A DNA stretch of 64,000 bases from Alphaproteobacteria bacterium (GTDB lineage: Bacteria > Pseudomonadota > Alphaproteobacteria > Rs-D84): contig SUUM01000002.1 of assembly GCA_015062525.1 (NCBI GenBank), forward strand, positions 82,964-146,963. Direction: 5' to 3'. A program made the translations under genes and the position numbers. Below, one piece after another: positions 1 through 58,135 of this stretch. Position 1 is the stretch's first letter, and every line of letters begins with the position of its first letter. Under the pieces are notes generated by a model. The model ran no database searches. It saw only the letters and a list, made by a program, of their open reading frames with translations, and was not told where the DNA came from.

Positions 1-6
1 GATAAA

Positions 7-20
7 AAAGTGTATGACAT
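7..20. repeat. 14-bp direct repeat aaagtgtatgacat (left copy). Putative attL core of the 7-kb element; the right copy is at 7019-7032
   Basis: Exact 14-mer repeated at 7019-7032 (18/19 identity including flanks). It sits immediately upstream of the integrase gene. A gtaatac heptamer flanks both copies (24-30 and 7012-7018). Confidence 0.5.
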
Positions 21-1567
21 ATTGTAATACCGATAAATACATCCGGTTGCGAAACAATATTTTTTATTTTACAATGGAATTACCAAGACAAAACGGTAAA
101 AGACGGTTCTTTTGTAAATCGTTACATACCTACAATTATTACGAAGCAAGGGAAAAAGCAAAAATTATGGCGGAAAACGTTGAACATTTTGACACGATAC
201 AATTTATGAATGATTTCAATACGTTATGGAATCAGGTAATATTTGATTATAGTGGCACTGGTGGTAATTTTACCGGGTTTGCAGCCCGCAGGATATCGGA
301 TAAAACAAACCCTATGGTTTTAAAACAATTAAAAAACATGTCCGAAAAGTTAGATTTGATACAACAAAACCAACTTGACCCCGGGGACAAAATTATGTTG
401 GGACAATTAAAATCTGTTATTCCACAAATAAATGCTTTATTGGCCAAAGTGGATAATGTGGAACAATTATTGGCAAGTGCTCAAATTCAACAACCAAAAC
501 AAACCAAAAAATATAAAATTGGTGAAGTTTTGAAATCAATGTTAAAAAAGTCCAATAACCAAAAAGCAGAAACCGACAGAAAAAACAACAGTATTATAAA
601 AATGTTATCTGAAGTGGGTTTGAACCCAGATTGTGATTATGATGATTTTAATAATCCGGAAATAATCCAAAATATAGCAGAAAATATCAAAGGGTATCAA
701 ATTAAGGGTGATGCCAAACGAAAATACGTCAGATATATTCGTGATTTGATAAAACAAGCACATATTTTAGCCCCAGATTCATACCAAGAAAATTTTATAA
801 ATTTGTTGCCTGATTTACCAAAAACACCAAAACACCAACAAAAACCACATTTACCGTATTCCGAAAGTCAATTATTGGAAATGTTTGACCCGAAATACGA
901 CCACTTTAAAACTAACCCGGACGAATTTTGGACGGCTTTGATTGGTTTGTTTACCGGTGCCAGAATAAATGCAGCAACAACCTTGCAATATGGTGACATT
1001 ATTAACCAGGATGGGCTTGATTGTATTTATTTTAGACAAAATCACCCTGTAAAACACCTTAAAACCGAAGCATCCGAACGTATTGTTCCGATACCATCGC
1101 AGTTGTTGAATATGGGTTTTGTTGATTGGGTTAAAGCCAGAAAAGAAAAATTAAATACCACAGATGATGACTTCATTTTTCCAAAATGTAAAACAAAAAC
1201 AGGCAATTTTGAAAATAAATATTGGTCACGTGGTTTGGCGGTATTTTTGAAAGAAATCGGGGTTAAATCAAAAAATGGTGACCAGTTAGATTTTCATTCG
1301 TTCCGCAAAAACGCGAGTTTAAGATTACAAAATGCAGGAATAATCCAATCTTTTATTAACGATATTATCGGTTGGGAAGGCAAAAACACGATGGAACAAT
1401 CGTATTCAAATCACACTTTACCCCAGATAAAAGAACAAATTGATAAGTTGAATTATGACTTTTTACAACCCCATTTTGATAAATGGACGGAAATAATGAA
1501 AAAAGTAAAATGTAGTGAAAAAAGACGTTCGGAAACTGGGAAAAGTGGGAACAAAGGGAACAAATAA
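14..1567 (+). CDS. Tyrosine recombinase / phage-type integrase
   Basis: C-terminal catalytic-domain motifs are present: TGARINAA (box I Arg), HSFRKNASLRL (HxxR) and a downstream Tyr in EQSYSNH. The gene sits at the edge of an AT-rich island. The true start may be the internal Met (MELPRQ..., ~74). Confidence 0.75.
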   Translation: MTYCNTDKYIRLRNNIFYFTMELPRQNGKRRFFCKSLHTYNYYEAREKAKIMAENVEHFDTIQFMNDFNTLWNQVIFDYSGTGGNFTGFAARRISDKTNPMVLKQLKNMSEKLDLIQQNQLDPGDKIMLGQLKSVIPQINALLAKVDNVEQLLASAQIQQPKQTKKYKIGEVLKSMLKKSNNQKAETDRKNNSIIKMLSEVGLNPDCDYDDFNNPEIIQNIAENIKGYQIKGDAKRKYVRYIRDLIKQAHILAPDSYQENFINLLPDLPKTPKHQQKPHLPYSESQLLEMFDPKYDHFKTNPDEFWTALIGLFTGARINAATTLQYGDIINQDGLDCIYFRQNHPVKHLKTEASERIVPIPSQLLNMGFVDWVKARKEKLNTTDDDFIFPKCKTKTGNFENKYWSRGLAVFLKEIGVKSKNGDQLDFHSFRKNASLRLQNAGIIQSFINDIIGWEGKNTMEQSYSNHTLPQIKEQIDKLNYDFLQPHFDKWTEIMKKVKCSEKRRSETGKSGNKGNK

Positions 1568-1735
1568 TTCAGATTTAATTCCAGATTTGTCGAACCATAA
1601 ATAATAATAAATTACCCTTAAAAAAGTGTTCCAGGGTATCCAGTGTCAAATTTTAATGGTTTCTGTATGGTTCTATATGGGTCCGAAACGAAGAATTTAC
1701 GATTTTTTTCTAACAAACCAGCGCAGAATACAAAT

Positions 1736-2377
1736 TTACTTTTTTACATGTTTTTGAAATGATATTTGATGCAGATCAGAAATCAAATTTTTACCTTTAT
1801 AATTTTTTTCAAATTTTTTAAAGATATCAATCTGTTTGATAAAATCATCAGTATCAACATACCAGGTGTAATTATATTTATCAAATGCGTCAAACACAAT
1901 AATATCAATTTCTTTTCTGTGCTTTTTTATCCATTTATATACAGTTTCAAAATCAATATATAAAAACGTATCATTTTTTGCTATTTCGTGTATTTCACGA
2001 ATGGATAAAAATACACTAAAAAACTTGTTATTATCACTCGTTGTAATTTTTGGCACAACATTCACATTTTTCATATACAAATAATCAGTATTTTTGCAAT
2101 CTGGTAATTTTATAATACTTTTGTCGTTTGTTCCAGGGGGATAAATAGCACCAACTGGGATTAACATTTCAGAGTGCACCAACAGGGATAAAAAATACAT
2201 TAAACTTTCTGAATCCTTAAATGTTATAAATTCGGATAATGCACTAGATAACGTTCCACACAAATAATCTGTATGTTTTTCTTTGTGAATAATACAGTAA
2301 TCAAACTCATATTCAAAATCTTTGAAATGATTTTCATCCATTACATACATTGGTAAAGATTTTTTTAAATTTGACAT
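1736..2377 (-). CDS. Hypothetical protein; third gene of the nuclease operon
   Basis: 213-aa ORF lying 3 nt downstream of the GIY-YIG gene on the same strand. No recognisable motif. Confidence 0.5.
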   Translation of the reverse strand: MSNLKKSLPMYVMDENHFKDFEYEFDYCIIHKEKHTDYLCGTLSSALSEFITFKDSESLMYFLSLLVHSEMLIPVGAIYPPGTNDKSIIKLPDCKNTDYLYMKNVNVVPKITTSDNNKFFSVFLSIREIHEIAKNDTFLYIDFETVYKWIKKHRKEIDIIVFDAFDKYNYTWYVDTDDFIKQIDIFKKFEKNYKGKNLISDLHQISFQKHVKK

Positions 2378-2380
2378 ACT

Positions 2381-3370
2381 CTAATTATCATTATAACCAA
2401 AATCCCGAGTTTTTAAAACTTCTTTCCAATAATTTTCACGTTCTAGTGCTTTGGTTTTCCCTAACTCTGTCTTTGGAAATATTTCCATTATACTATATTG
2501 AAAGTTATCCTTAATATATTTAATCCCTTTTGTTTTAACTAATTCTTTTAATTTTTTATTTGGATAATCCTTGTTTGTGTCATCATAACCTTTATTCAGA
2601 TAAACAGACCAACGGCCATAAATTCCATTGTTTCCTGTTGCAGAACCTATGTATTGTTTCCCTGTATTCATATCTGTTAACACATATACACCAAACACAT
2701 TACTTAAATTCTCTTTCCAATCTCTGCTGTCTATCACTCGTTTCAAAGAATTATAATCTTTTCTAACGTTTTCATATCCAGTAAACTTTTCTTCCATATT
2801 TAAATATGGTTCTGGTAAAATTTCTGACACAACAACACTATTTATAACATCATCTGATGTATAATAAAATTGTTGGGGCTTGTTTGTGAAATTAACCACT
2901 AAACGACCATTAAACGATTCAAACTCTTTTAATTTTTTTGCGTTAGCATACCTGAAGTGTTCGTGTTTTACTTCATTAAAACCGTCTGCGTTTAAATCAA
3001 TAATTTGGTAAGCACCTATAAATAACCATTTATGAGTATCTATTTCTATAAATTCAAAAACAACATCTTCTAAACTTAACCGTTTCTTTTTTCCTGAACC
3101 CATAGACAATATAGCTTGGTCAAGAAACTTATCCTTATTCAGATACATTGTTTTAAAATCACGTATCTTTCTTACTTTCTTGCCATGTTCCTGAATTTCA
3201 TCTTGCCAAGATATATTAAACCTTAATTTACGTCGTTTGGTTGGGTAATTATTTTCAAAATTATTCTTATTAAGTCCGAATAAGATGTCAACTAGATGTA
3301 ATTCAGTATTCATATTATACCCTTTAATCGTTTGATTCTGGATATGGATAAGTTTCATCATAAATATCAC
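2381..3370 (-). CDS. GIY-YIG nuclease domain protein with an unknown ~200-aa N-terminal domain
   Basis: The C-terminus reads FGVYVLTDMNTGKQYIGSATGNNGIYGRWSVY...ENYWKEVLKTR, a canonical GIY...YIG...R...E...N arrangement. It overlaps the upstream gene by ~47 nt. Confidence 0.65.
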   Translation of the reverse strand: MIFMMKLIHIQNQTIKGYNMNTELHLVDILFGLNKNNFENNYPTKRRKLRFNISWQDEIQEHGKKVRKIRDFKTMYLNKDKFLDQAILSMGSGKKKRLSLEDVVFEFIEIDTHKWLFIGAYQIIDLNADGFNEVKHEHFRYANAKKLKEFESFNGRLVVNFTNKPQQFYYTSDDVINSVVVSEILPEPYLNMEEKFTGYENVRKDYNSLKRVIDSRDWKENLSNVFGVYVLTDMNTGKQYIGSATGNNGIYGRWSVYLNKGYDDTNKDYPNKKLKELVKTKGIKYIKDNFQYSIMEIFPKTELGKTKALERENYWKEVLKTRDFGYNDN

Positions 3371-3953
3371 GTAAATTTTTATTATTATAAGTCCAGTATT
3401 GACCTGGTTGAACGTAATACGGTAAATCCAATAATTCCTTTGTTAAAGCACTTAATGCGTATTCTTTATCATTATATAATACCTTTTTAGGACCAATAAC
3501 ACTAATTTTAATATCTGGGTCTTTTACATAAAACAATTCTGAACCGACAGGAATTCCCATTTCTTCAAAATTAAATTGCGGTCTGTGGAATTGTTTAGCA
3601 GCAGACTTTTCTGCATCAGATATATTACGAAACAAAGCATCCTGAACAGTATTTGTTATTTCACTTGTTGAAAATTCCTTTAATAAAGGGATAACTTGGT
3701 CGGGTGCAACATTGAAAAATTCACGTTTCGGGTTAACACGTTTATCCCGAAAAGCATTATGAATAATTTGTTCAATTGTTGTGCAATCTTTAACTTCACC
3801 AGCCCATAAACATTGAAAAGGGAACGGAACACCAGTTGAATATAATTCGGACATTCTGGCATTCAAATCTTTACGTTGTGTTTTTCCAATTTTTATTAAA
3901 TTCGGCATACCTTCATTAGCCAACACATAAACAATATTATATTTATCAGTCAT
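3324..3953 (-). CDS. T5orf172 / MUG113-type (GIY-YIG-like) domain protein with a C-terminal extension
   Basis: The N-terminus YNIVYVLANEGMPNLIKIGKT...ELYSTGVPFPF...EVKD...EQIIHNAF...REFF matches the conserved T5orf172 pattern (VYVL..KIG.T, STGVP.PF). Confidence 0.65.
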   Translation of the reverse strand: MTDKYNIVYVLANEGMPNLIKIGKTQRKDLNARMSELYSTGVPFPFQCLWAGEVKDCTTIEQIIHNAFRDKRVNPKREFFNVAPDQVIPLLKEFSTSEITNTVQDALFRNISDAEKSAAKQFHRPQFNFEEMGIPVGSELFYVKDPDIKISVIGPKKVLYNDKEYALSALTKELLDLPYYVQPGQYWTYNNKNLRDIYDETYPYPESND

Positions 3954-4102
3954 AATACATCCCTTTGTTATGATTATATTTTAATATACTTTGGGACTCG
4001 ATTCAATCCCATTTTGCATAAAAATATGATTTTTTACTTATTAGGGTTTACATTTTATTATTCACCCTTTATAATGTATTTTACATAAACAAGGTAAAAC
4101 AA

Positions 4103-4675
4103 ATGAAAAAAATTGTATTTATGGTCTTTTTGGTCTTTAATACCCTGTGTGCAAATGCTCAGGACGGATTTACTTTTTCACAAAATATCAGTAAATTGAA
4201 AAATTTAGATTTACATAATAACGACGCAGAGTTTACCCAAGAACAAAAGGAACAAAAACAAGTCAAAGTTTCTTTTTATAATACACTGTATAAAACCTGT
4301 ATTGATAATGGCAAACAAAGAATTAAACAAAAACAACCACTTGATAACGAAACACTTTATATGCTTGAAAAAGTGTGTGATTGTTATACTTTGACTATGA
4401 TGGACAAAGTTGATTGGAAAAAATTAAAAAATATGACAGGAAACGAAATTGATTCTTACCTGGCGACTTTCCATACAGAAGTAAAAGATGAATGTAGTGA
4501 AAGATTTAAAGATAGACCTGTTTATCAAGATAATAACACAAAAAATACAACACCTGAAAATATAAAAAACAAAGTCGATAACATAACGGGAAAAATTTTA
4601 GCGGGAATAATTTTTTCTTTAATTTTTACCCTGATAGCATGGTTGATAAGTAAAGCCATTAAAACAGATAAATAA
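4103..4675 (+). CDS. Secreted, C-terminally membrane-anchored hypothetical protein
   Basis: Signal peptide MKKIVFMVFLVFNTLCANAQ, scattered Cys residues, and a C-terminal TM helix ILAGIIFSLIFTLIAWLI. Confidence 0.5.
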   Translation: MKKIVFMVFLVFNTLCANAQDGFTFSQNISKLKNLDLHNNDAEFTQEQKEQKQVKVSFYNTLYKTCIDNGKQRIKQKQPLDNETLYMLEKVCDCYTLTMMDKVDWKKLKNMTGNEIDSYLATFHTEVKDECSERFKDRPVYQDNNTKNTTPENIKNKVDNITGKILAGIIFSLIFTLIAWLISKAIKTDK

Positions 4676-4843
4676 AATTGTAATAAATTTCATTTTTTAG
4701 TATGCGACAGGGTATTTTTGTATTATAATAGTAATAATAATGGGGTGTTGTGTAAATTTTCAGACACCCCATTTTTTTATTAAATACCCGTTTACGAATG
4801 GTCGTTTTTTTATTATAATCTTTTCGCAGACACAGAAAGATAG

Positions 4844-5050
4844 TTGACGAAAATGAAAAAAATAATGTATGCAAAACAAAGTGGTAATCAGGTCAGTTTA
4901 TACGACAGTTCAAACCGTGAATATTGTCGTGTTAATGGACAATTGGTATCATATACATCAGATTTTGTTATAACAAGTGGTGGAATATTTAGCACCCATA
5001 ACCACGTATATGATTCAAATGGTAAATGGGTTCGTGACGTGCAAAAATAA
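4844..5050 (+). CDS. Small hypothetical protein (68 aa)
   Basis: ORF only, in an AT-rich island. Confidence 0.25.
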   Translation: MTKMKKIMYAKQSGNQVSLYDSSNREYCRVNGQLVSYTSDFVITSGGIFSTHNHVYDSNGKWVRDVQK

Positions 5051-5057
5051 CAATTTA

Positions 5058-5579
5058 TTATTGTTTTGGTCTTTTATACGGAATATTAAATAATTGTTCA
5101 GATGTGAATAACCTAATTGAGTCAAAATGTTGATGGTTATCAGTTAAAATTTCTTTGCTGTTATACCCAGCAAGATTTTCAGGTGTTCGGTTTATGTTTT
5201 GCACGTCTATTGCCCTGGACGGCATTTTGTGTAAGTGCATAATAATTTCACAAGCACGTTGTATTTGTTCCAATGTATGATTGGGTGCTGTTAAATGAAT
5301 ATGAAAATGACACACGTGTTTTTTACCCAGTTCGATTACACCACGAAAACGTAAGTGGTGTCTGTTCCAATGTAGCCCACCTAATATACGTTCAAGGTCC
5401 AATAAAATGGGGTGCAATATATCAAGTGCTTTATACATATCAGATGTTTCAGAAAAAAGTGGTAAACGAATACACAAATAATGTGTGGGGTTATTTTCGT
5501 TTAAGAAGTCAATAAGTTGTGGAAGTATTTTAAGATATTGTTGTTTTGTATAAAAAGTGTCTGTTATGAATTTTTTCAT
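5058..5579 (-). CDS. Hypothetical protein with HUH-endonuclease-like motifs; possible rolling-circle Rep
   Basis: Three motifs in the canonical Rep order and spacing: YLCIRLP (motif 1-like), CHFHIHLT (HuHuuu), and AGYNSKE (YxxK). Confidence 0.4.
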   Translation of the reverse strand: MKKFITDTFYTKQQYLKILPQLIDFLNENNPTHYLCIRLPLFSETSDMYKALDILHPILLDLERILGGLHWNRHHLRFRGVIELGKKHVCHFHIHLTAPNHTLEQIQRACEIIMHLHKMPSRAIDVQNINRTPENLAGYNSKEILTDNHQHFDSIRLFTSEQLFNIPYKRPKQ

Positions 5580-6033
5580 TTTATTATTCCTGTATGTTGT
5601 GCCCCATAAAGTAATGTGTGTATTATTAAATTATGGGGTGTGTTAATTGTTATAATGTATTGTTTTTATTATATTTTTTATTTGTTGTTTTAATTATAGG
5701 TGTATTTGTCACTTGGGGTTCGTGCCCTTAAAAAAATATACCGATAATGCCCGACATTATTTTTCAAGACGTCTATTCATTAAGTCCATAATGTCCAATA
5801 ATGTCGTTTACACACACCATCAAATACTTATCAGGTGTGATATTTATACGCACCGTAACGTAAAGGCGTTTTTTCACCATACCCGGGGTCAGATACCCCA
5901 AAAATAATCACTCCATAGGTTGATAAGACACAAAACGGTTAAAATGTGTCTTTTAATAAATTGGGTAAAATAGTATCTGTTTGGGGGCTGTAAATTATAA
6001 ACCGACCATTACAAGCCCCCAACCTGTTATAAA

Positions 6034-6594
6034 TTAGACAAGATTGGTACGTAAACCATAATCCGTATTTAATCTTAGTTCTTTATAAAGGTCTATGCCA
6101 TCACGAATACTTTTCATTCGTTTGGGGTTTGTGTGGGTATATTTTGACCACAGATTCAATTCACATTGTTTGTGTGTGTCTATCAAAGCCACGTTTTCTT
6201 TGACCAAATGTATTTCAATTGTGGTCGTATCCAGCATAAAATCCAATATAACTATTTTACCAAAATCATGTGTTGGTAACTGTTCAGCACTATCAAATAC
6301 AACTGCAACGGATTGATGTAAACTGTTTATATAATTTATCATGTGATAGAATGTTTTATCATCATCCAATGGATTGCATTCTAAAAATGTTTTTATAATT
6401 ACCAGATCTTTATCAAAACAATATTTTGCAGTTCTAAATAATTGAGGTGTTAACGTATCGTTTTCATCCCCAGGGAAACAGGGATTTTGACTTGCAAATA
6501 TAATTGCATCAAAATAATTACTCATGTTTAATACCTTTGACTTAAATTCGGTCGTTTTGTTGTTTTCTGACCGAAAATGTTGATTGGAATCCAA
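6034..6594 (-). CDS. Hypothetical protein
   Basis: 186-aa ORF in the AT-rich island; no motif recognised. Confidence 0.4.
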   Translation of the reverse strand: MDSNQHFRSENNKTTEFKSKVLNMSNYFDAIIFASQNPCFPGDENDTLTPQLFRTAKYCFDKDLVIIKTFLECNPLDDDKTFYHMINYINSLHQSVAVVFDSAEQLPTHDFGKIVILDFMLDTTTIEIHLVKENVALIDTHKQCELNLWSKYTHTNPKRMKSIRDGIDLYKELRLNTDYGLRTNLV

Positions 6595-7018
6595 AGGACA
6601 TCAAAAAGGGACAAATGTTAAAAAACGACAAAAATAATCATACCGATATTTTTTTGATGACAAAGGTATTTGATTTGTTTTTGGATTTTATTTTGATTTG
6701 ACCCCACTTGGTGTCTTTTGGGGTTAATAAAAAATAGGTTCGGTTATGGGACAAAATTTATCACCCCATATATATTAGAACTATTTTTTTTACGTTTTTA
6801 ACGCTTGTTAGACTTTATAAATGTCATTTTTTTGCATTTTTTTTGATTTTTATGGTATTATGATACCAAAATCCCAAATTTTATGACTCCGTTGATAAAA
6901 CATCCTTGAAACAGTGGTCGATTGACCCAAAAAATATAAAAACTGGGTTCACGACCATAAAAACCCGTTTACATTATCAAAAAAATGGTATATAATCCGT
7001 ATCAAGAAAGTGTAATAC

Positions 7019-7032
7019 AAAGTGTATGACAT
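7019..7032. repeat. 14-bp direct repeat aaagtgtatgacat (right copy). Putative attR core
   Basis: Identical to 7-20. It is located where the AT-rich island ends and the core begins. Confidence 0.5.
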
Positions 7033-7097
7033 TTTGACGAATTTAGGTGCTGAAAATTAGCAAAAATGTTAGTTTTCTGGGGCATGACGGAAATATG

Positions 7098-7170
7098 GTA
7101 TGTTCCCCTTTGCTCGCACCAGATATTTTAAACCACCCGAAAGGGTGGTTTTTAAATATCTCGGGCAAAG
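7098..7170. repeat. ~70-nt imperfect palindrome (cccctttgc...agatattttaaaccacccgaaagggtggtttttaaatatct...gcaaagggg)
   Basis: Both arms were read directly from the sequence. Its centre is a stem-loop (accaccc gaaa gggtggt) followed by a T-run. Confidence 0.6.
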
Positions 7171-7227
7171 GGGCGAGTTGCGAGGCGAGGTTATGAAATA
7201 ACCGAAGTACTTTGCGAAGCCCAAAAT

Positions 7228-7262
7228 TTTAAAAACCACCCACTGGGGTGGTTTTTTATTGT
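7228..7262. terminator. Bidirectional intrinsic terminator (aaaaaccaccc actg gggtggtttttt)
   Basis: GC stem flanked by A-run and T-run, directly downstream of zapA (minus strand). Confidence 0.6.
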
Positions 7263-7534
7263 GTAATCTTGTGCTTAATCTCGCGTATTCGGGCCAGGAT
7301 TTCCTTCAAATCGGCATCTGTTGCGACGGCTTCTGGTTTGTTGTTCACCTCGTCAGCAAGGACAATACACAACGTCGCCAACAATGAACTTTCGGGCAGG
7401 GGCCCAATCTTGTCCAGAATCTGGCGCGCGCGCGCGTCAACCATTTTACCCAATTCAATCAGGCGCCCTTCCTGTCCATCTTCGCACCCCATTGGGTAAT
7501 TTTTATTTACAATCGGAATGGAAACAACACTCAT
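7256..7534 (-). CDS. zapA: Cell division protein ZapA
   Basis: N-terminal ...IVNKNYPMGCEDGQEGRLIELGKMVDARARQI resembles alphaproteobacterial ZapA (NYRMGCEDGQE). 92 aa. Confidence 0.7.
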   Translation of the reverse strand: MSVVSIPIVNKNYPMGCEDGQEGRLIELGKMVDARARQILDKIGPLPESSLLATLCIVLADEVNNKPEAVATDADLKEILARIREIKHKITQ

Positions 7535-7743
7535 TTTTTCAATTTCCTTAAAATAGATACAGATTTATCAATCATATCAACCGCGCGTGCATTTTTATCG
7601 CGCAGGCTGCGTACCTGTTCGGTTAATATTGCCACCTCTAAATCAGTTTGTTTGCCCGCGTGAATTGCGGTGCCACGTAATTTTGCGGCCGCTTCTTCCA
7701 GGTGGGCCAGTTCTTGAAAAATTTGCTGTTTTATATCTGCCAT
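7531..7743 (-). CDS. Small coiled-coil protein upstream of zapA (ZauP-like)
   Basis: 70-aa coiled-coil-type sequence, ATGA-overlap with zapA. This matches the zauP-zapA operon arrangement of alphaproteobacteria. Confidence 0.5.
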   Translation of the reverse strand: MADIKQQIFQELAHLEEAAAKLRGTAIHAGKQTDLEVAILTEQVRSLRDKNARAVDMIDKSVSILRKLKK

Positions 7744-30003: not shown

Positions 30004-31017
30004 TTATTCCATAACAATCATAACAACCTTGTGCATGGTCTGGGCTGTGATTTTTTCATCAGGTGATGACATCTGACCATAAACTTTGCCCTTGGAATCC
30101 TGGCGTACACTGACGATTTGTGCGTTGATTGTTGTTTCATCATCCAATGCGTCAAAGTCTGTATCAATCGCCACCGCCAAATCACCAGGCTGTGCCGGGG
30201 TTGCAGAATCTGCAAACACATACGATTTTTCTGGTATAAAACCGCCCAAACGCTTGGAATTTGGTATAACCGCATAGATACCCGCGCGCCCCTCTAATGT
30301 CATGGGGGCGACAATCATAGTTTTGTCAGATTTTTTGAATGCGATTACTTTGCCCGCGGGTGTACCGAACACAGGCACCAGTTTTTTGCGTGCGCTGTCA
30401 TACAATTTTGCGCCATACAATCCGCCATGCATATCCATGCCCGACATTGGATTACCCGGCACCAGTACAGACTTAACACGTTCTTTGACCTTGCTGATAT
30501 GCTTGTTCAATTCGCCGGATTTATACAGGTTCGCGATTTTATCGAACAATTCTTCGGCACCCATTGCAAATGATTTTGCCAATGGTTCAATTTCATTTTG
30601 ATAAATTTCGCGTTGTCCAACCTCAATCTTATGATAAACGGACAGCGTCATACCGGCATCTTTGGCGGCCTGGGCGATTGTTTTGCCGGTTTGCTGACGA
30701 ATTTTACGCAGACCGCTGCCAAATACCTTCAGACCGCTGTTTTCATTGTCTGACATACGGCGTTTAATTTCGCTTTGCCATTGGTCTGCAACATCATCGG
30801 ATTCCTTGATGAAAATATCAGACAGTTTGCACCCCAGAATATTACAAATATTCAGCAACTGCTTCTGATTCAGGCGGCGCACACCCTTTTCAATCTTGGA
30901 AACAGCGGACAAAGACAACCCAGCACGACGTGCCAATTCGGTCATCTTCATACCATTCGCCAAACGAATGTTGCGTATATTATTTGGAAATATAATTTCT
31001 TCTTGGGCCATGGGCAA
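30004..31017 (-). CDS. CI/LexA-like repressor with two XRE-type HTH domains and an S24 peptidase-like C-terminus
   Basis: Two HTH_3-like segments (IRLANGMKMTELARRAGLSLSAVSKIEKG and LRKIRQQTGKTIAQAAKDAGMTLSVYHKIEVG). The C-terminal VPGNPMSGMD motif is GDSM-like, with downstream Lys residues. Confidence 0.6.
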   Translation of the reverse strand: MPMAQEEIIFPNNIRNIRLANGMKMTELARRAGLSLSAVSKIEKGVRRLNQKQLLNICNILGCKLSDIFIKESDDVADQWQSEIKRRMSDNENSGLKVFGSGLRKIRQQTGKTIAQAAKDAGMTLSVYHKIEVGQREIYQNEIEPLAKSFAMGAEELFDKIANLYKSGELNKHISKVKERVKSVLVPGNPMSGMDMHGGLYGAKLYDSARKKLVPVFGTPAGKVIAFKKSDKTMIVAPMTLEGRAGIYAVIPNSKRLGGFIPEKSYVFADSATPAQPGDLAVAIDTDFDALDDETTINAQIVSVRQDSKGKVYGQMSSPDEKITAQTMHKVVMIVME

Positions 31018-35978: not shown

Positions 35979-36003
35979 AAAAACCGGGTCCCCCCGGTTT
36001 TTA

Positions 36004-37143
36004 TTAGAATTTAAGATGCTTCAGATGTCGGAACAACCGTTGAAAACTAGATTCATGTTTCTTTGATTTATAGTTATACAAGTCATTAACATGTTGTGCG
36101 GAATAATTTATAACAAATTCGCAATAATCAAACATCAGGCGGTTTGAATTTTCTTCTGAGACATGTTTTACAGGTGTCATATTATCCAGAATATTCAAAA
36201 CTTCATTTATCTTTGTGGATAATTTATATCGTTGTTCTGCAATACGCTTTAATTCATCAGATTGTTCTAATGTCGTATTGTATTGCGACACAATTTCATC
36301 CGCAATTTGTTCTGCTGTTTTCTTGGTAAAGAAATTTCGGCCCGAAAAATTTGCACTTTCTTCAACTAAGACATTTTCAGGTGTGATATATCCGCTACCA
36401 CCAAATCGGTCATAATTATATACGGGGATTCCCATTGCCATGGCGTACTGTACTGTTTTACCAATAGACACAACCACATCGTGTCTTGCAAGTACATCTG
36501 GCACAATATCAACTGGATTTTTACCACCATAAACAATAGTATCGTAACCCTGATTTTCCAGTATTTGTAATGCGGCACTTAATTCACAAGGAATATGGTT
36601 TGATATAACAGCGATACTTTTTAGCGGGCGCGAATAATCATGTTTATAATCAAAAAAATAATCTGGCGCAGTATTTGGCAACACATGAATAATATCACCA
36701 TCAATATCATATTCGTTTATGAACATGTTTTTAGTTTTTGGGGTTAAAGTTAAAAATAAATCCACAGACTTTGTAAAGAACAACGGTTTGTCAATTGGTA
36801 AAATTTTACTGATACAAGAGTTTATCAATCTGTCATATTGCAAACCTCTGCGAATCAAGTATGGCAATATGGGCCAATGGTGTGCCCAAACAATGTCGAT
36901 ATGTATATCTGTTGGAAAATCAAAAACGTTGAATAATTTTACATTATTTCTGGCAAAGAATTGTTTTGTTGATTCATTGGTAAGTGCGCCAACACAAAAC
37001 ACATTATACCCCAAAGAGTGTAAATAGTTCCCGATTTCTGCCGTATATTTTACACCCCCATGCAAACCATCGGCATAGAAAATAGTAATCAGAACGTTTT
37101 TCACGATTTTATCCTCTTTTGGTATTGTATAAATTTTGTACAA
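36004..37143 (-). CDS. Putative glycosyltransferase (GT-B-like), hypothetical
   Basis: 379-aa ORF in an operon with GT4 and GT2 genes; weak GT-B-like C-terminal pattern. Confidence 0.4.
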   Translation of the reverse strand: MYKIYTIPKEDKIVKNVLITIFYADGLHGGVKYTAEIGNYLHSLGYNVFCVGALTNESTKQFFARNNVKLFNVFDFPTDIHIDIVWAHHWPILPYLIRRGLQYDRLINSCISKILPIDKPLFFTKSVDLFLTLTPKTKNMFINEYDIDGDIIHVLPNTAPDYFFDYKHDYSRPLKSIAVISNHIPCELSAALQILENQGYDTIVYGGKNPVDIVPDVLARHDVVVSIGKTVQYAMAMGIPVYNYDRFGGSGYITPENVLVEESANFSGRNFFTKKTAEQIADEIVSQYNTTLEQSDELKRIAEQRYKLSTKINEVLNILDNMTPVKHVSEENSNRLMFDYCEFVINYSAQHVNDLYNYKSKKHESSFQRLFRHLKHLKF

Positions 37144-38254
37144 GTGCTGTTATCTGATCTAATACAACATAGGGGTTAAACCTATCTAAGTTCTGAAGCG
37201 CTATCGATTTCATTTTGTCAATGTTGATCTGATTGTGATAGACCTGAGACATTTTTACTGCTAAATCATTTGGGTTTTGTGGTTTAAATAATAAGCCTGC
37301 TTCTCCGTTCATTAAAATCTCTGCCACACCAGACTTTACATTTGAAGCTATATTCAATGTATTCAAGGCTTGTGCCTCTATCAACACGGTTGGCAATACC
37401 TCTCCAAAAGATGATAGGATATGGGCTAAAGCCCCCTTAACGTATCCGAAAGGATTGGGGACATTCCCCAAAAACACAACATGATTGTCTAGATGTAGCT
37501 GGTCAGTCAATTCTTCCCATTGTTGACGTAATGGACCATCGCCACACATGTACAACTTCACGTCAGGATAATTTTCTTGCTCTAGAAAAAGTTTAAAGCC
37601 CTTAATCAATGTTTCGTGGTCTTTATCTGTGTGCAATCTGGCAACTGATACAAAATATTTATGTGGTAATTCTGACATTTGTCCTTGTTCTACACGATTT
37701 TGTATAGATATAACATCAACAGGATTATAAATACATTCTATTTTATGTGCTAATTCAGGATGTTTAATAACAAAGTCGTTATAGAATGATTGGGATATGG
37801 CAACAATTTTGTGATAGGATTCTATATTTTTCATGTATTCAGGATTAGAAAAATATGCAGATATAGAACAATGTAAAAAAGCGATTTTGGGTCTGTTGAC
37901 TTTTTTTATCTGATTACAAAAACATCCATTAAAATAATCGATAACAATATCATATTGCCTTAACTGTCTGCAAAAACGAATTTTTTCTATACGTTTCCTC
38001 AGCCGCCAAATTTTTTTTTGTAAATATTTAGTTGGTCTGGGTTGCATGTGATAAAAAAAGCCATTGTCAAACAAATTTATATTGTTGTTTTGAAAGAAGT
38101 GTAAAAAACGTTTTTCTGTGACCTTGACGCGTGATATAACGCTAACTTCATACTTGTCATTATCTTTTAATAGTTCCAAGATTTGTAATAAACAAGTCTC
38201 TATCCCACCCGTTATTAGGTGGTGCATTAAGAAAACTACTTTTACTTTTGGCAT
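37109..38254 (-). CDS. Glycosyltransferase family 4 (GT-B)
   Basis: N-terminal HHLITGGIETCLLQ and C-terminal ...SFGEVLPTVLIEAQALNT...; 381 aa. Confidence 0.65.
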   Translation of the reverse strand: MPKVKVVFLMHHLITGGIETCLLQILELLKDNDKYEVSVISRVKVTEKRFLHFFQNNNINLFDNGFFYHMQPRPTKYLQKKIWRLRKRIEKIRFCRQLRQYDIVIDYFNGCFCNQIKKVNRPKIAFLHCSISAYFSNPEYMKNIESYHKIVAISQSFYNDFVIKHPELAHKIECIYNPVDVISIQNRVEQGQMSELPHKYFVSVARLHTDKDHETLIKGFKLFLEQENYPDVKLYMCGDGPLRQQWEELTDQLHLDNHVVFLGNVPNPFGYVKGALAHILSSFGEVLPTVLIEAQALNTLNIASNVKSGVAEILMNGEAGLLFKPQNPNDLAVKMSQVYHNQINIDKMKSIALQNLDRFNPYVVLDQITALVQNLYNTKRG

Positions 38255-40209
38255 TTTTCTACCTCTTTACCAATACAAATAGCGTAATACAGTTTGCCAA
38301 TCTTTATTTCCAATGTGCCAAGATTATCGTGTAGTTTCGGAAATATCAAAACCTTCATGGTCTTAATGCCTCTAATACGTATCTTGATTGGGTCAAACAC
38401 ACAAACCGAAAAAGTTTGCAAAGTAGTGCGCCATATAGATTTTTTTGCAATTTTAAGTGATTTTAATGGATGCTTTATTACCGTCCCCATAGGAATTTTG
38501 GAACCAAATAAAGACATATAAATATCATTTTGAGGATTGCTGGATGTCTTGATATTGAACATATGTTTCTTATCTTGTTTGCTTGGCTCCTCAACAAAGC
38601 AGTTTATCCAGGCTACAATGGTTTCGTATTCAAGATAAATATCTGCCCCAGCAAATAATTTCTTTATATCATTTGCAAATTGTTCCGCAGCATTTGAAAT
38701 ATCGGGATACACTGTTCGAATTATCTTTTCCGCCTCGGATATATTTTTTTTATATATAGGTTGTCCTTGTTCTGTTATGCCTTCAATAGGATATTCGGGT
38801 GATGTCATCAAAAATTCCATCAAAGCCCAATGTGAAATATAACTGATTTTTGGATGTTTTTTAGATGTTAAAGCCCACGAGGAATATGTGTTTCTGGGTA
38901 ATATTTCTGTTTTATTTATAGTATGCCAATACATGGCATAGCTATTAACAGATTTTTTTAACGCAGATTCAATTAATTGCTGTGCTGAAAAGTTTTCAGT
39001 TATTGTATCTACTATACCAACGTTCTTGCTGTTCGCGGTACATGAATAAATGTAATCTGAATATGTGGTAAAATTTTTATTTGCCAAAGGTTGCAAATAT
39101 TGTTTGTTAGATTCTAAAAAATCTAGCATAGAGATTTTTGTAAAATCGGCTTCACTAACTTTTTTAGCAAAAGAATCATCATTGTTTGCAAAATACTGAA
39201 TCACAGCACGTTGTTGAGTATCAGCAACAGCAGATTTGTCAGACCTGTAATCCAATCGACAAATCAGGTTCAAGAACCGTGGTGCATAAACATATGAATT
39301 CTTGATTGTGTTATTAAATGTGTTAAAAACACGCTGCAAACTGTATCCATCGCGTGCCACAAACATAAGGTGGTCAATCCCCTGATTCTGTGCCGTCTGT
39401 TCAATCCATCGTGTATAACCATAAATTACTGGACCCCCATATTCGTATCCCAATTTTTCCCAGTAATTTTTGGCAACTGCCATACCCATACGTTCGACCT
39501 GGTCACGCATTGCCATAATCGCCACCAGAATACTTGCCCCCAGGTTGTCGTCCTGCTTGCGATAAAATTTGGACATGCGAACATTATTTTTCAGAAAGGT
39601 TTTCACCAGGTGTGGATACAAATATGCCCGCAATCCATGTTCGCGTGGTCTTTTATAGTCTGATTTTTTGTTGTCCCCAATATGCAATATTTTGTTTGCC
39701 GGCACCCCCATATCGCGAATTATTGTATCAAACAGTATCCCGCGCGCCTTGGTCTGGTTAATGTCGCCCGACACATACAGCCTGTCATAACCACCAAACC
39801 CATTCTTATCCAATACATCTGCAATAAATTCTGTTGGCAGATACATATCAGATGCAACAACGATTTTTTTGCCATTTTCACGTGCGAAATCCCAAATTTC
39901 TTTCATTTCTGGGTTTTGGCGCAACACCATACGTTCCCAATCCAGCTCTATCGACTTCAGATGTTTAAAGCATCCATCGATTTCCTCGTAAATTTCATCA
40001 AATGTAATATCTTGCTTGGCCGGGTTTTTCTGACGTACATTCCATTCTGCTGCCACACGGCATGTCATAAAGAACGGTGCATTATAATGCTTTTCGATAT
40101 GTAAAAACAAATCAATGGGTCGCACATATGGTCGAAATAACAACGTATCAAATATGTCAAATGACACAATATCAACATTTTTTATCAACTTTTGTATTTT
40201 TTTATTCAT
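38242..40209 (-). CDS. HAD-superfamily hydrolase domain protein with a large C-terminal unknown domain
   Basis: N-terminal VSFDIFDTLL (DxDx(T/V) motif I) and ...HIGDNKKSD (motif IV-like). The C-terminal ~450 aa is unassigned. Confidence 0.5.
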   Translation of the reverse strand: MNKKIQKLIKNVDIVSFDIFDTLLFRPYVRPIDLFLHIEKHYNAPFFMTCRVAAEWNVRQKNPAKQDITFDEIYEEIDGCFKHLKSIELDWERMVLRQNPEMKEIWDFARENGKKIVVASDMYLPTEFIADVLDKNGFGGYDRLYVSGDINQTKARGILFDTIIRDMGVPANKILHIGDNKKSDYKRPREHGLRAYLYPHLVKTFLKNNVRMSKFYRKQDDNLGASILVAIMAMRDQVERMGMAVAKNYWEKLGYEYGGPVIYGYTRWIEQTAQNQGIDHLMFVARDGYSLQRVFNTFNNTIKNSYVYAPRFLNLICRLDYRSDKSAVADTQQRAVIQYFANNDDSFAKKVSEADFTKISMLDFLESNKQYLQPLANKNFTTYSDYIYSCTANSKNVGIVDTITENFSAQQLIESALKKSVNSYAMYWHTINKTEILPRNTYSSWALTSKKHPKISYISHWALMEFLMTSPEYPIEGITEQGQPIYKKNISEAEKIIRTVYPDISNAAEQFANDIKKLFAGADIYLEYETIVAWINCFVEEPSKQDKKHMFNIKTSSNPQNDIYMSLFGSKIPMGTVIKHPLKSLKIAKKSIWRTTLQTFSVCVFDPIKIRIRGIKTMKVLIFPKLHDNLGTLEIKIGKLYYAICIGKEVEKCQK

Positions 40210-40227
40210 GATAAACGCTCTCCAGGC

Positions 40228-41133
40228 TCAGGCAATTCGACCTATTTTTATAAATTCAAACAGATATATTTCTCCGTCCTGCACCTTTAACAATGGTATT
40301 TTTTCAAACAGGTAATATTTTGTTTTTGTGATACCGTACTGTTTTTTTCGAATAATTGGCAAGAACCCGAATAAACGCACGTGTTTGTTGGTTTCGCCCG
40401 CTAACGCCATCAGGTGCTCTTTTAGCCTATTATCATCTGTAATATATTCTATAATATTTGCCTTTACTCGTTCTGCGCTTTCGCGTTGTATTTTCTGTGA
40501 TACAACGGACACGTTCATATTGTGCCAACGGTATCTTAACAATTTTTCCGGGACATTGTGTATAGGTGCAACCTTGATAATCTGCGACCAAATTTCATAG
40601 TCCTCGGCGTGTGGAAAATCTGGATTATAGTATATTTTGTTATCTCGCAATACTGATGTTCGGATGGTTGTCGTGGGGTGCGATAAGGGTGTTCCAACAA
40701 TCAACATATCTAAAATTTTTGCGCGTTCAGGATATTGGCGAACAGATGGATTAATATTTTCACCGAACTTTTCATGCCACCCACCAACCGCACCAACATG
40801 TGGGTTTTCATCCAGATATGCAACTTGTTTTTCCAATCTCTCGGGCATGGCTATATCATCACTATCCATGCGGGCGATGTATTCACCACGTGCTAAATCC
40901 AGTCCCTGGTTCAGAACGGCAATTAAACCCTGATTTTTCTTGTTGTCAATAAATCTTATGCGTTTGTCGGTCTTGGCATATTGGGCGATGATATCTGCGG
41001 TTTTATCTGTGCTGCCATCATTAATGATTAAAAATTCAAAATCGGAAAAAGTCTGATTCAGGATACTTTCAATTGCCTCTGCAATATATCTCTCAGAATT
41101 ATATGCAGTCATTAAAACAGAAACTTTTGGCAT
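40228..41133 (-). CDS. Glycosyltransferase family 2
   Basis: VSVLMTAYNSERYIAEAIESILNQTFSDFEFLIINDGSTD and DSDD motifs. Confidence 0.8.
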   Translation of the reverse strand: MPKVSVLMTAYNSERYIAEAIESILNQTFSDFEFLIINDGSTDKTADIIAQYAKTDKRIRFIDNKKNQGLIAVLNQGLDLARGEYIARMDSDDIAMPERLEKQVAYLDENPHVGAVGGWHEKFGENINPSVRQYPERAKILDMLIVGTPLSHPTTTIRTSVLRDNKIYYNPDFPHAEDYEIWSQIIKVAPIHNVPEKLLRYRWHNMNVSVVSQKIQRESAERVKANIIEYITDDNRLKEHLMALAGETNKHVRLFGFLPIIRKKQYGITKTKYYLFEKIPLLKVQDGEIYLFEFIKIGRIA

Positions 41134-41280
41134 GGGCGTCCTTTACGTTAAAAAAACAGGGGATGGACGTTCAAACAATCAGAAAACAAGTTAAACTTTT
41201 TTTCTAACTTCGCGCGTTTTCAATATATGGCGCACGCGTCCACCCCACATGGGAATGAGATCCGGTTGCCCCAGATATGT

Positions 41281-49995: not shown

Positions 49996-50595
49996 ATGTT
50001 AGATAAAGCCAAACAGATTGTCCAGTTTATGGATACTGTTGAAAAACTTTGTTATATAAAACGGTTTGCTACCTTAAAAGACAATAACAGGGAACGTGAT
50101 AGTGACCACATAATGAAATTGTCTTTCTTGGTTTTGTTGGTAGCCGATTTTCTTAGTGATAGATTAAATAAAACAAAACTTTTTGAACTTGCTCTTGTTC
50201 ATGATTTAGCTGAAGCGGATGCTGGTGATGTCTCTTATATAGAACAATTTGAGAATAATGAAGCCGTTGAACATAAAAGAGTTAAAGAATTAAATGTTAT
50301 TAAATCGTATCAAAAGCTTTTACCGTCACCACTTAATGATAAAATATATGAATTATTCATGGAGTATGAAACAGGCTGTACCATAGAATCCAAAATTATA
50401 CATAGTTTGGACAAGTTAGAGGGTGACTTGCAGTGTTGTAAGGACCTAAACCTATCGACTTATTGCAATCACAATGCTTTTATATCCCGTATATCCGCAC
50501 TCCAAAAGCATAAATATAGCACCATGACGAATGAGCCGATTATAGAAGCACTGGAAAGATTGATTCTTGAAAAGTCAAAGGATACTTCGAATTAG
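49996..50595 (+). CDS. HD-domain phosphohydrolase (YfbR-like)
   Basis: RDSDHIMKLSFLVLLVADFL ... LVHDLAEADAGDV (H...HD...D metal-ligand pattern). Confidence 0.6.
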   Translation: MLDKAKQIVQFMDTVEKLCYIKRFATLKDNNRERDSDHIMKLSFLVLLVADFLSDRLNKTKLFELALVHDLAEADAGDVSYIEQFENNEAVEHKRVKELNVIKSYQKLLPSPLNDKIYELFMEYETGCTIESKIIHSLDKLEGDLQCCKDLNLSTYCNHNAFISRISALQKHKYSTMTNEPIIEALERLILEKSKDTSN

Positions 50596-50618
50596 TAGAA
50601 ACGAGGAGCTAAACAAGT

Positions 50619-52229: not shown

Positions 52230-53130
52230 ACTGTTTATGGCTTAACATTGGATAAAAACAGCACTCTGTACAGCAGGGACATTTCTCTTTTGTGCCAAGA
52301 TCCTTGATAACCATGGGCTTACTTATAACCCTACCACTATTTATACAAGGTGTCATTGTTCCATCTGGGCGCACGAATACAAATTCGCTACCTGCAAGGC
52401 AATTATCCATTATGTCTATCTGCCCAGTCTTAAAGAAATTGTGTTGAGCTGCAATAAACTTATCATCAGCCTTGAACTTACGAGAGAAGTCCATTATTGT
52501 TGTCACGTCTTCTTCTGGGATACACAAATTAACATCTGAGTTATGATAAAAGTCATCGTTATTATTAGCAAATCTAAAGGTATATGTGCATCCATATTTA
52601 CTTGCTAGTTCCGCAACATGTTCCAAGTTCGCAATGTTGCTATTGTGAGGTGTTATTGTTGTAGAAAACACAACGTTTATCTTCGGCAGCTGTTCTCTGA
52701 TTAGTTTCGCTGTTTGTATAACTGAATCATAGCAATTTATTCCACGTACTTTATGCATATCCTCTGGTCGCCCCTCTATTGATAGACATAAATATTCATT
52801 CTCTATCTTACCGTATACACTTTCCAGCAATGCCAAAACTCTTTTAGGATACGTTCCATTTGAGTTTACCCATAAATGCTTTAAGGCAGGCAGGTTGTCT
52901 ATTATAGACTTTACAACGTCTATTGCATCTTTTCTTAAAACGGGTTCGCCTCCTGATATACTCGCATCAATTATATCCTTGAAATAATCCTGTTTAAACA
53001 AATCGCCAAACTGTTCTGCATTTATTTCTGTTGGGGTAATCCCGGTCTTCCATATGTTGCACATAGTACAACGACTATTACATTTGTTGGTTATGGCAAT
53101 TGTTGCATATTTTACCATTTTACTTCCCAT
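52216..53130 (-). CDS. Radical SAM enzyme with C-terminal SPASM/twitch Cys cluster
   Basis: CNSRCTMCNIW (CxxxCxxC), SGGEP glycine-rich motif, and C-terminal C...C...CPCCTECC. Confidence 0.75.
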   Translation of the reverse strand: MGSKMVKYATIAITNKCNSRCTMCNIWKTGITPTEINAEQFGDLFKQDYFKDIIDASISGGEPVLRKDAIDVVKSIIDNLPALKHLWVNSNGTYPKRVLALLESVYGKIENEYLCLSIEGRPEDMHKVRGINCYDSVIQTAKLIREQLPKINVVFSTTITPHNSNIANLEHVAELASKYGCTYTFRFANNNDDFYHNSDVNLCIPEEDVTTIMDFSRKFKADDKFIAAQHNFFKTGQIDIMDNCLAGSEFVFVRPDGTMTPCINSGRVISKPMVIKDLGTKEKCPCCTECCFYPMLSHKQSKQK

Positions 53131-55500: not shown

Positions 55501-55601
55501 GTATAAACCCCTTGTTAATTGTGGATATTTGTAGCACAAAATTGACAGATGTCAATATATTTGTTTGACAACACGCCTTTTTTTGTATAAATTTATCTCA
55601 A

Positions 55602-57799: not shown

Positions 57800-58135
57800 T
57801 ATATACCTCTCTTATAATTTCATTAACTAGCATATTTTTCTTCATTAGACAATATTTTTATCATTATATGATTTACATTCTGAATATATTTCGCCTTTGG
57901 CCAATCCAGCCAATGATATACGTGTGGTTGAAACAACGTTCTTTAGATTTGCAACCTCATCCAATGTAAAGTATTGCATATCTGCACACTTGTCCCCCTC
58001 GCAGTTGCGAATTGTGCCGGTATATTTTGATACCTCGAAAAAGAAATCAAAAGATTCTGTTCGACTGGCCAGATTGCTGGTGACATGAACACATTTGATA
58101 TCGCAAGTGGCTATTTAGCAAATTATAATAGATTA

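Follow-up and report, generated by a model that had tools for sequence, protein, structure and literature searches.

A probable mobile defence island in the 3' end of a tRNA-Gly(GCC) gene of an uncultured gut alphaproteobacterium

The tRNA gene islands (tDNA islands) of Islander are reportedly defined by a tyrosine integrase, an intact tRNA gene and a displaced 3' fragment of that tRNA gene. In the attP site of lambda, the core is flanked by arms with tandem, directly repeated arm-type sites, which have a period of about one helical turn and are bound by the N-terminal domain of Int. The tycheposons of Prochlorococcus are small cargo elements with tRNA-specific tyrosine recombinases and a primase/helicase/polymerase replication module (bioRxiv 10.1101/2020.12.28.424599), and pSAM2, an integrative and conjugative element (ICE) of actinomycetes, uses a tRNA 3' end and a tyrosine integrase and has its excised circle copied by the rolling-circle protein RepSA (PMC2440964). 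In KplE1, arm sites that overlap the expression signals of the integrase gene (int) lead to negative autoregulation by IntS (PMC2951348). Here we describe an element at the left end of a 64,000-nucleotide stretch of DNA, hereafter the window, from Alphaproteobacteria bacterium of the Rs-D84 lineage (GenBank assembly GCA_015062525.1, contig SUUM01000002.1, positions 82,964 to 146,963 of the forward strand). This element is very probably a 7.26-kb mobile defence island in the 3' end of a tRNA-Gly(GCC) gene, with putative arm sites for its integrase, a HUH-type replication initiator (Rep) and anti-phage cargo.

The island is flanked by an exact 17-bp repeat, CCCCTTTGCTCGCACCA, which corresponds to the last 17 nucleotides of tRNA-Gly(GCC), CCA included. 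On contig L001, whose position 166 is window position 1, the two copies lie at 14-30 and 7270-7286, with a spacing of 7,256 bp. The left copy ends the intact tRNA gene at window positions -151 to -135, beyond the window edge, and the same tRNA-Gly(GCC) gene was called by ARAGORN in L002 and L091. A sequence-only reading of the window had ended the element at a 14-bp repeat (the 14-mer AAAGTGTATGACAT) and guessed at a tRNA as target. The guess was borne out by extension to the left, which placed tRNA-Gly(GCC) just outside the window; the 14-mer does not mark the boundary, since the island runs to 7104 on the right and about 134 bp past the left window edge, and its core is the 17-bp tRNA end. 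The corrected map has the island ending at the 17-bp tRNA fragment and at the tRNA-Gly gene outside the window. The features that define it are as follows.

7105-7121, plus strand: attR core CCCCTTTGCTCGCACCA, the displaced 3' fragment of tRNA-Gly(GCC) and true right end of the island
1-1567, plus strand: tyrosine integrase gene, 522 amino acids (PF00589, PHROG 1); the start ATG ends at position 1, with 2 nucleotides outside the window

Comparison contigs were retrieved by a look-up of ZapA (7256-7534), which found contigs from other samples that encode the identical protein. The occupied contigs are L001, L002, L091 and L092; the empty ones, which encode the same ZapA, are L003 to L007. L002 matches the window with 100% identity across 17.5 kb, and its left flank gives the order integrase, tRNA-Gly(GCC), P-type ATPase. 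The empty contigs have the flanking genes of the window without the island, with tRNA-Gly 32 to 135 bp from zapA; nucleotide identity to the window in the flank is 97.6% for L003 and 95.1% for L005, and the alignment of L003 with the window starts at 7105. The tRNA-Gly sequence is the same in empty and occupied sites, and the DNA at 7033-7104 on the right and in the approximately 134 bp past the left window edge is specific to the island and absent from the empty sites. The G+C content is 26 to 35% over positions 1 to 7000 versus 39 to 52% thereafter. Among near-identical strains, the island is present in some and absent from others, with exact junctions.

This locus has a tyrosine recombinase at one end, an intact tRNA gene together with a displaced 3' fragment, and empty sites at exact junctions. 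Like the Islander tDNA islands, it has its integrase beside the intact tRNA gene and the displaced fragment at the far end, and the tRNA gene is restored by the island; it differs in nothing essential, except that its identity block is short, at 17 bp. Judged by these sequence features, all of which it has, the element is in kind an ordinary tRNA-integrated island of a tyrosine integrase. The earlier description of an integrative element with a tyrosine integrase and a HUH Rep-like gene also holds (PF00589, E = 2.9e-11; PF23343, E = 3e-4). The integrase further matches PHROG 1 (integrase, E = 3.7e-21) and, weakly, DUF6538 at its N terminus. As had been suspected, the element is too small and too bare for a full prophage. 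We rejected a prophage, an inovirus and known satellites (phage-inducible chromosomal islands and P4-like elements), as there were no PHROG structural matches and no Pfam structural or Zot matches, and a single IMG/VR contig carries a relative of the integrase.

The island belongs to a family, which we sampled through 80 GTDB genome loci coding for integrases 40 to 99% identical to that of the window. All 80 come from uncultured gut or rumen Alphaproteobacteria, several of them labelled Candidatus Enterousia. Where ARAGORN found a nearby tRNA gene (59 loci), the integrase lies 148 to 217 bp downstream of it on the same strand in 58, the remaining gap, in L080, being 671 bp. The family uses 15 different tRNA genes, and 19 loci could be delimited by a 17- to 28-bp repeat of the tRNA 3' end, giving element sizes of 4.5 to 11 kb. 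Among 102 nonredundant open reading frames (ORFs) from the cargo of these 19 relatives, restriction-modification, HipA, Fic, PLD, AAA ATPase and superinfection-immunity proteins dominate; the cargo can be described as mainly restriction-modification, toxin and abortive-infection genes with some DUF927/DUF5906 proteins, and no structural or conjugation families appear among the top matches of the 102 ORFs. The smallest delimited relative, L022 (9846-14308; 4.46 kb, in tRNA-Tyr), has only int, rep, a 92-amino-acid protein, a secreted and anchored 218-amino-acid homologue of the 190-amino-acid protein of the window, and a 73-amino-acid membrane protein, a content that may approach the family's minimal gene complement. 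We also noticed that L030 and L040 have only the 3' half of tRNA-Gly, and no full gene, about 190 to 240 bp upstream of int, which suggests a tandem insertion or a decayed target. A literature search returned no paper linking Rs-D84 with integrases, and the family was not met in the searched literature.

With tycheposons the family shares streamlined host genomes, related recombinases that each have their own tRNA, a replication module, defence and niche cargo, and stacked remnants beside the tRNA gene. However, this island has a 173-amino-acid HUH Rep and no primase/helicase, with DUF927/DUF5906 proteins in some larger relatives, and its host is a gut alphaproteobacterium. Elements of the pSAM2 type are likewise in a size class of about 10 kb, integrate in a tRNA 3' end and combine a tyrosine integrase with a rolling-circle Rep; the island differs in having no FtsK-like Tra, Kor, Spd or identified Xis, in the phylum of its host and in its much smaller Rep of the ORF2/G2P type. 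Domains of FtsK-like Tra and Xis were found neither in the element nor among the top families of the 102 cargo ORFs of its relatives. Since it lacks the primase/helicase of tycheposons as well as the Tra and Xis of pSAM2, we file it under neither and call it tycheposon-like, the placement of its integrase clade aside.

Between integrase and right end lie the cargo genes and rep, together with an inverted repeat upstream of rep:

1736-2377, minus strand: 213-amino-acid protein, last gene of the cargo operon, 4 bp downstream of the UzuA gene
2381-3361, minus strand: UzuA-like protein with a C-terminal GIY-YIG nuclease domain (PADLOC, Pfam, PHROG); start at 3361 or 3370
3324-3953, minus strand: protein with a T5orf172/MUG113 domain, PADLOC PDC-S57, by profile matches
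4103-4675, plus strand: 190-amino-acid protein with an N-terminal signal peptide and a C-terminal membrane anchor, by inspection of the translation
4844-5050, plus strand: 68-amino-acid protein, convergent with rep and conserved in 9 loci
5058-5579, minus strand: HUH-type Rep, 173 amino acids (motifs I to III, PF23343, Foldseek)
5752-5806, no strand: inverted repeat CGACATTATT...AATAATGTCG, about 200 bp upstream of rep
6034-6525, minus strand: 163-amino-acid protein, whose ORF could extend to 6594 (186 amino acids)

The payload is predicted to be anti-phage defence, consisting of a Uzume-type nuclease, PDC-S57 and one further gene. Uzume is a single-gene GIY-YIG system (bioRxiv 10.1101/2024.10.26.620412), and the island likewise has a single UzuA protein with a GIY-YIG domain (PADLOC UzuA, E = 1.6e-47; Pfam GIY-YIG, E = 2.2e-6; PHROG 26160, E = 1e-37). 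PDC-S57 is matched over its full length (PADLOC, E = 6.3e-71; Pfam T5orf172, E = 1.7e-17). Profile matches to both systems are strong, with GIY-YIG in UzuA and T5orf172 in PDC-S57. The locus departs from the described Uzume in that the N-terminal ~95 residues fall outside the UzuA profile match and that UzuA and PDC-S57 share one operon with a third gene. In the sequence-only reading, the cargo included a three-gene nuclease operon; a more apt description of this operon is two genes with predicted anti-phage roles (UzuA and PDC-S57) and one other. That third gene, for the 213-amino-acid protein, co-occurs with UzuA and PDC-S57 in L012, and homologues of the 190-amino-acid protein with the same layout occur in L010 and L012, with a more distant one in L022. 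None of the 213-, 190-, 68- and 163-amino-acid proteins had a usable match across Pfam, PADLOC, PHROGs and NCBIfam; the sole NCBIfam match, of the 213-amino-acid protein, was dismissed as noise (15 bits against a cutoff of 304). A single-sequence AlphaFold2 model of the 163-amino-acid protein had a predicted local distance difference test score (pLDDT) of 35 and was unusable.

Comparison with two relatives indicates that the defence cassette is exchanged between sister elements. L010 also targets tRNA-Gly and its integrase has 95% nucleotide identity, and an AAA_15/21 ATPase (PD-T4-4_A/HEC-02A-like) with partner genes replaces the cassette. Conversely, the cassette of L012, a tRNA-Pro element, has 95.7% nucleotide identity though the integrase is 74% identical. 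A small, precisely delimited element of this kind would pass Uzume, PDC-S57 and alternative anti-phage genes from strain to strain in uncultured gut bacteria, a bacterial group in which we know of few other mobile elements.

The small HUH-motif protein has the Rep motifs in order, with motif I YLCIRLP (residues 34 to 40), motif II H91-F-H93-IHL and motif III Y139-NS-K142-E. H91, H93 and Y139 do not vary among 21 sequences, and in a set of 46 their conservation is 90% or higher. A tblastn search of the family loci found relatives of Rep in 39, which makes it, with the integrase, a core gene of the family. PF23343 (ORF2/G2P type) is matched by 38 of 46 Rep relatives at E ≤ 0.01 (best, 1.4e-8), and the AlphaFold2 model of Rep (pLDDT, 75.8; pTM, 0.75) gave weak and consistent Foldseek matches to the Rep of adeno-associated virus, nanovirus M-Rep, SIRV ORF119, microvirus and P2-type initiators, and ORF2/G2P proteins. 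A search of the Rep profile against PDB sequences returned nothing meaningful; the Rep family is small, with 219 clusters at E ≤ 0.001 among 1.84 billion representatives. The 163-amino-acid gene co-occurs with rep in L010, L013, L093 and L094, and by this co-occurrence the two genes appear to move as a module. In L093, a 12,130-bp contig, a 100% identical Rep is part of a 5.66-kb tRNA-Pro(TGG) element with another integrase and other cargo, and an equally identical Rep is found in L095 beside a Fic-domain gene. The inverted repeat at 5752-5806 recurs at the same distance from rep only in L010, L012, L013 and L060 and so is clade specific; it is a weak candidate for the Rep origin or binding site.

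The Rep type bears on an alternative that we regard as rather unlikely and that extends the reading as a mobile island rather than excluding it, namely, that the element is mobilisable or a satellite and that its Rep functions in transfer and not in maintenance. Rep would then be a relaxase acting at an oriT with helper conjugation, as in an integrative mobilizable element (IME), or the single-stranded DNA (ssDNA) would be packaged by a helper filamentous phage in the manner of RS1. In the CTX/RS1 biology of Vibrio, the ssDNA of RS1 is packaged by a helper filamentous phage, and IMEs with Rep-type relaxases are said to be covered by a review. The match of the Rep family to the ORF2/G2P type of filamentous and small ssDNA phages is in line with this proposal, as are the lack of structural or transfer genes of the element's own and the makeup of the minimal relative L022, with only int, rep, the secreted anchored protein and small membrane proteins. 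However, no helper and no oriT were identified, the 19 relatives yielded no Zot-like ATPase, coat protein, relaxase-accessory protein or coupling protein, and the integrase has a relative on only one IMG/VR contig.

Returning to the island as a mobile element with integrase arm sites, the 14-mer and a second short motif fall into a regular layout on both sides of the core. As had been reported from the sequence alone, the 14-mer is exact at 7-20 and 7019-7032, and the heptamer GTAATAC follows the left copy (24-30) and precedes the right one (7012-7018). Both copies of the 14-mer are on the plus strand, and the 64 kb holds no further exact copy. The sole other near match of the 14-mer in the window (30395-30408, minus strand, 2 mismatches) is within chance expectation, and the match between the two exact copies lengthens to 18 bp with one mismatch. 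Exact direct repeats of at least 14 bp number 6 in the element against 1.1 expected, and at least one occurred in 66% of Markov simulations; a repeat pair no more than 250 bp from both ends occurred in 0.1%. The 14-mers and heptamers resolve into tandem pairs of 12-bp sites, listed here with a promoter-like element that adjoins the right pair.

9-31, plus strand: candidate tandem 12-bp sites of the left (tRNA-side) arm, AGTGTATGACA at 9-19 and ATTGTAATACC at 21-31, over integrase codons 3 to 11
7009-7031, plus strand: candidate tandem 12-bp sites of the right arm, AGTGTAATACA at 7009-7019 and AGTGTATGACA at 7021-7031, 73 bp from the core
6968-6996, plus strand: sigma-70-like promoter TTTACA-17-TATAAT, 11/12 consensus and the best of the region, directly upstream of the right-arm sites and directed toward attR

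The left pair takes in the 14-mer at 7-20 and the heptamer at 24-30, and the right pair takes in the 14-mer at 7019-7032 and the heptamer at 7012-7018, so that the tandem layout with its 12-bp period explains the swapped positions of the heptamers. The exact motif AGTGTAWKACA occurs in the 64 kb only at 9-19, 7009-7019 and 7021-7031. Excision is predicted to give a circle in which one 14-mer is followed by 72 bp, the 17-bp core, 141 bp and the other 14-mer. The earlier remark about arm-type architecture therefore pointed in the right direction and has to be applied to the 14-mers and heptamers themselves, which bracket the real core in the circle. The candidate layout shares with lambda attP a core flanked by arms with tandem, directly repeated arm-type sites; it differs in having two sites per arm with a 12-bp period and no identified IHF or Xis sites.

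The 14-mers and heptamers are probably arm-type integrase sites internal to the island, because the same layout recurs in 18 of the 19 delimited relatives on other tRNA genes. Tandem pairs resembling AAGTGTnnnnCA are found in both arms of the 19, one over the 5' end of the integrase gene and the other 72 to 105 bp from the core, the right-arm pair being noncoding. At the 5' end of int, every family member that was inspected has this tandem layout. In 18 of the 19 elements, the left- and right-arm 24-mers match each other better than 40 random interior windows; only 17 of 760 such windows matched as well, 16 of them from one element. Partial covariation is exemplified by GTGTAATACA, of which each arm of L014 has two copies, and by GTGTGATGCA in L054 and L058. 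An identical 14-mer pair is found in the tRNA-Pro elements L013 and L060, whose core differs, and their integrases are 91 to 92% identical to that of the window in the first 65 residues and 41 to 62% identical elsewhere. Shared 14-mers and a shared integrase N terminus together with a different core fit arm recognition by the N-terminal domain with separate core specificity. With compact pairs of att site and integrase for at least 15 tRNA targets, and with the same arm sites joined to different cores, the family offers a natural set for studying shifts in integrase target specificity.

Two further repeats were seen in the arms. TAGAAATCCAACACTTTT occurs twice in the tRNA-side arm, at L001 43-60 and 110-127 (window -122 to -105 and -55 to -38), and its first copy forms a terminator-like hairpin directly after the tRNA gene. 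A copy of the 10-mer AAAATGTTAG is found on either side of the core, separated from it by 6 bp on the left and by 32 bp on the right, where it occupies window 7063-7072.

The left sites lie within the integrase gene. Its N terminus is MIKKCMTYCNTDKYIRL (MIKKCMTYC...), and the start ATG at the window edge was assigned from a Shine-Dalgarno sequence, AAGGGGTG, upstream in L001, from the 522-amino-acid calls in L002 and L091 and from the consensus MxKKCMTxC. With this start, the left 14-mer covers integrase codons 3 to 7, inside the gene, rather than standing immediately 5' of it as first described. Every integrase of the family starts with MxxxCxxxC, whose two Cys codons coincide with the TGT of the two 12-bp sites, so that constraints on the DNA sites and on the peptide appear to overlap in this start. 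The coding position leaves room for an explanation to which we give little credence, in which the 14-mer pair has no function: the left copy would be kept as code for the integrase N terminus, and the right copy would be a leftover duplicate of the int 5' end, for example, from recombination between tandem elements. The coincidence of the left sites with the codons K-K-C-M-T-Y-C-N-T under the MxxxCxxxC start of the family agrees with this, and L030 and L040 are apparent cases of tandem or decayed insertion. However, the right-arm pair is noncoding, with no start codon or ribosome-binding site; it lies upstream of attR, whereas the int of a tandem element would be downstream of the att core, and it holds its distance of 72 to 105 bp from the core in relatives whose arms have otherwise diverged.

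If the pairs are arm-type sites, integrase bound to them would, by analogy with IntS of KplE1, probably also limit its own expression, given that the left pair covers the first codons of int and that a promoter-like element stands just upstream of the right pair. KplE1 shares the order of tRNA gene and int on the same strand and the arm-type sites over int expression signals; here, the sites overlap the first codons and not the -10 box, and we infer the regulation. A similar hexamer pair ends 96 to 117 bp from the core in 11 of the 19 relatives, although such matches are common in an AT-rich background. A junction promoter that drives int only in the circle was considered, and this idea is weakened by the terminator-like hairpin just past the core.

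We propose that the 522-amino-acid integrase would recombine the identical 17-bp cores of attP and attB while its N-terminal domain contacts four arm-type sites, which stand as tandem 12-bp pairs to the left and right of the core, and that this binding would also throttle integrase expression in a manner similar to KplE1 IntS. After excision, the small HUH Rep would probably nick an origin and copy the circle by rolling-circle replication, which would give the circle a chance of transfer. The payload would protect against phage, and its cassette would be swapped among sister elements. Excision, replication, transfer and defence are in this way read from the gene content and sites of the island.

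Several observations weigh against this account of a mobile defence island. All data are metagenome assemblies, and the 34-mer spanning the attP junction of the excised circle, predicted to read ...ATGGTATGTT-CCCCTTTGCTCGCACCA-AAGTTAAAATG... (with a repaired attB of ...GGTTCGAG-CCCCTTTGCTCGCACCA-GATATTTTAAACC...), was found neither in JGI metagenome contigs nor in IMG/VR. Nor could an excisionase or directionality factor be identified. The PF23343 score of Rep itself, 21.4 bits (E = 3e-4), is below the curated cutoff of 27.8; its Foldseek matches reach template modelling scores of at most 0.55, with E values of at least 0.03 in PDB and down to 1e-5 in BFVD, and alignment of rep flanks and k-mer enrichment over 37 loci gave no family-wide origin motif near rep. 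PDC-S57 is a candidate defence gene only. The left-arm sites are in coding sequence, and their conservation could partly be protein constraint on the CxxxC peptide. In the circle, read-through into int from the right-arm promoter would be stopped by the terminator-like hairpin that follows the attL core. Finally, arm-site similarity is 19.3/24 within elements versus 17.4/24 across elements, a modest excess. We therefore rejected strict covariation of the arm sites, an element's own left-right score being just modestly above cross-element scores, and the case for arm sites rests mainly on conserved position and motif, with partial covariation.

The missing attP junction, together with the older ~103-bp remnant at the same site, could also be taken to mean that the island is a decaying remnant unable to move, its polymorphism being the result of an ancestral insertion or deletion, which we consider quite improbable. 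Both int and rep have intact ORFs, the two 17-bp repeats match perfectly, and presence and absence separate strains that are 97.6% identical in the flank. Moreover, the same integrase is found with other cargo in L010, the same cargo with another integrase in L012, and the 100% identical Rep in the tRNA-Pro element L093. Intact ORFs, perfect repeats, strain polymorphism and module swapping thus speak for recent activity. That the 14-mers are themselves the att sites and ends of a 7.0-kb element, with the crossover inside them, has almost no probability left despite an exact 14-bp repeat near both ends and near the G+C shift, and is already refuted by the empty sites, which were predicted to have a single 14-mer and in L003 to L007 carry none, yet have the tRNA gene with the 17-bp core, and which lack both 7033-7104 and the ~140 bp left of the left 14-mer as island-specific DNA; the same 14-mer pair also occurs in elements with another core and target, and the left copy is inside the integrase gene.

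Mobile defence islands of this type may have a wider role, which we put forward tentatively and with more doubt than confidence. The family could be the main mobile element and carrier of defence genes in genome-reduced gut Alphaproteobacteria (the order Rs-D84, Candidatus Enterousia and their relatives) and would correspond in the gut to the tycheposons of the sea. It would have one tRNA per integrase subtype (at least 15) and a core of integrase and miniature HUH Rep of the ORF2/G2P type, and its MxxxCxxxC codons would double as arm sites with built-in feedback on integrase synthesis. Genomes of relatives within the host group are smaller than about 1 Mb (PMC12306168).

To the right of the island, the DNA up to zapA forms one further feature:

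7122-7255, no strand: chromosomal spacer outside the island, with the ~103-bp older remnant, hairpins and then the zapA terminator (7231-7256)

The ~103-bp remnant is present in the empty sites L003, L004, L006, L007 and L008 and missing from L005. It holds a degenerate second tRNA 3' fragment on the minus strand (7210-7223) and also an inverted copy, GGCAAAGGGG, at 7164-7173. Together with the attR core, this copy makes up a long hairpin whose fold z-score is -7.4. The remnant points to repeated use of the same tRNA site. We rejected ssrS (6S RNA) downstream of zapA as an integration target, there being no Rfam match at the gathering threshold or at E values up to 10; the hairpins downstream of zapA are terminators and the old att remnant.

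Beyond zapA, an ORF at 7531-7743, called zauP in the sequence-only reading, encodes a coiled-coil-like protein of 70 amino acids without a Pfam match and has a 4-bp overlap with the start of zapA on the minus strand. Two other stretches of the window, at 36000-41200 and 50000-58000, have a low G+C content (33 to 36%) and encode glycosyltransferases, a radical-SAM protein, related enzymes and a seryl-tRNA synthetase. Their glycosyltransferase genes rule them out as further copies of the element, and they look like surface-polysaccharide loci unrelated to the island.

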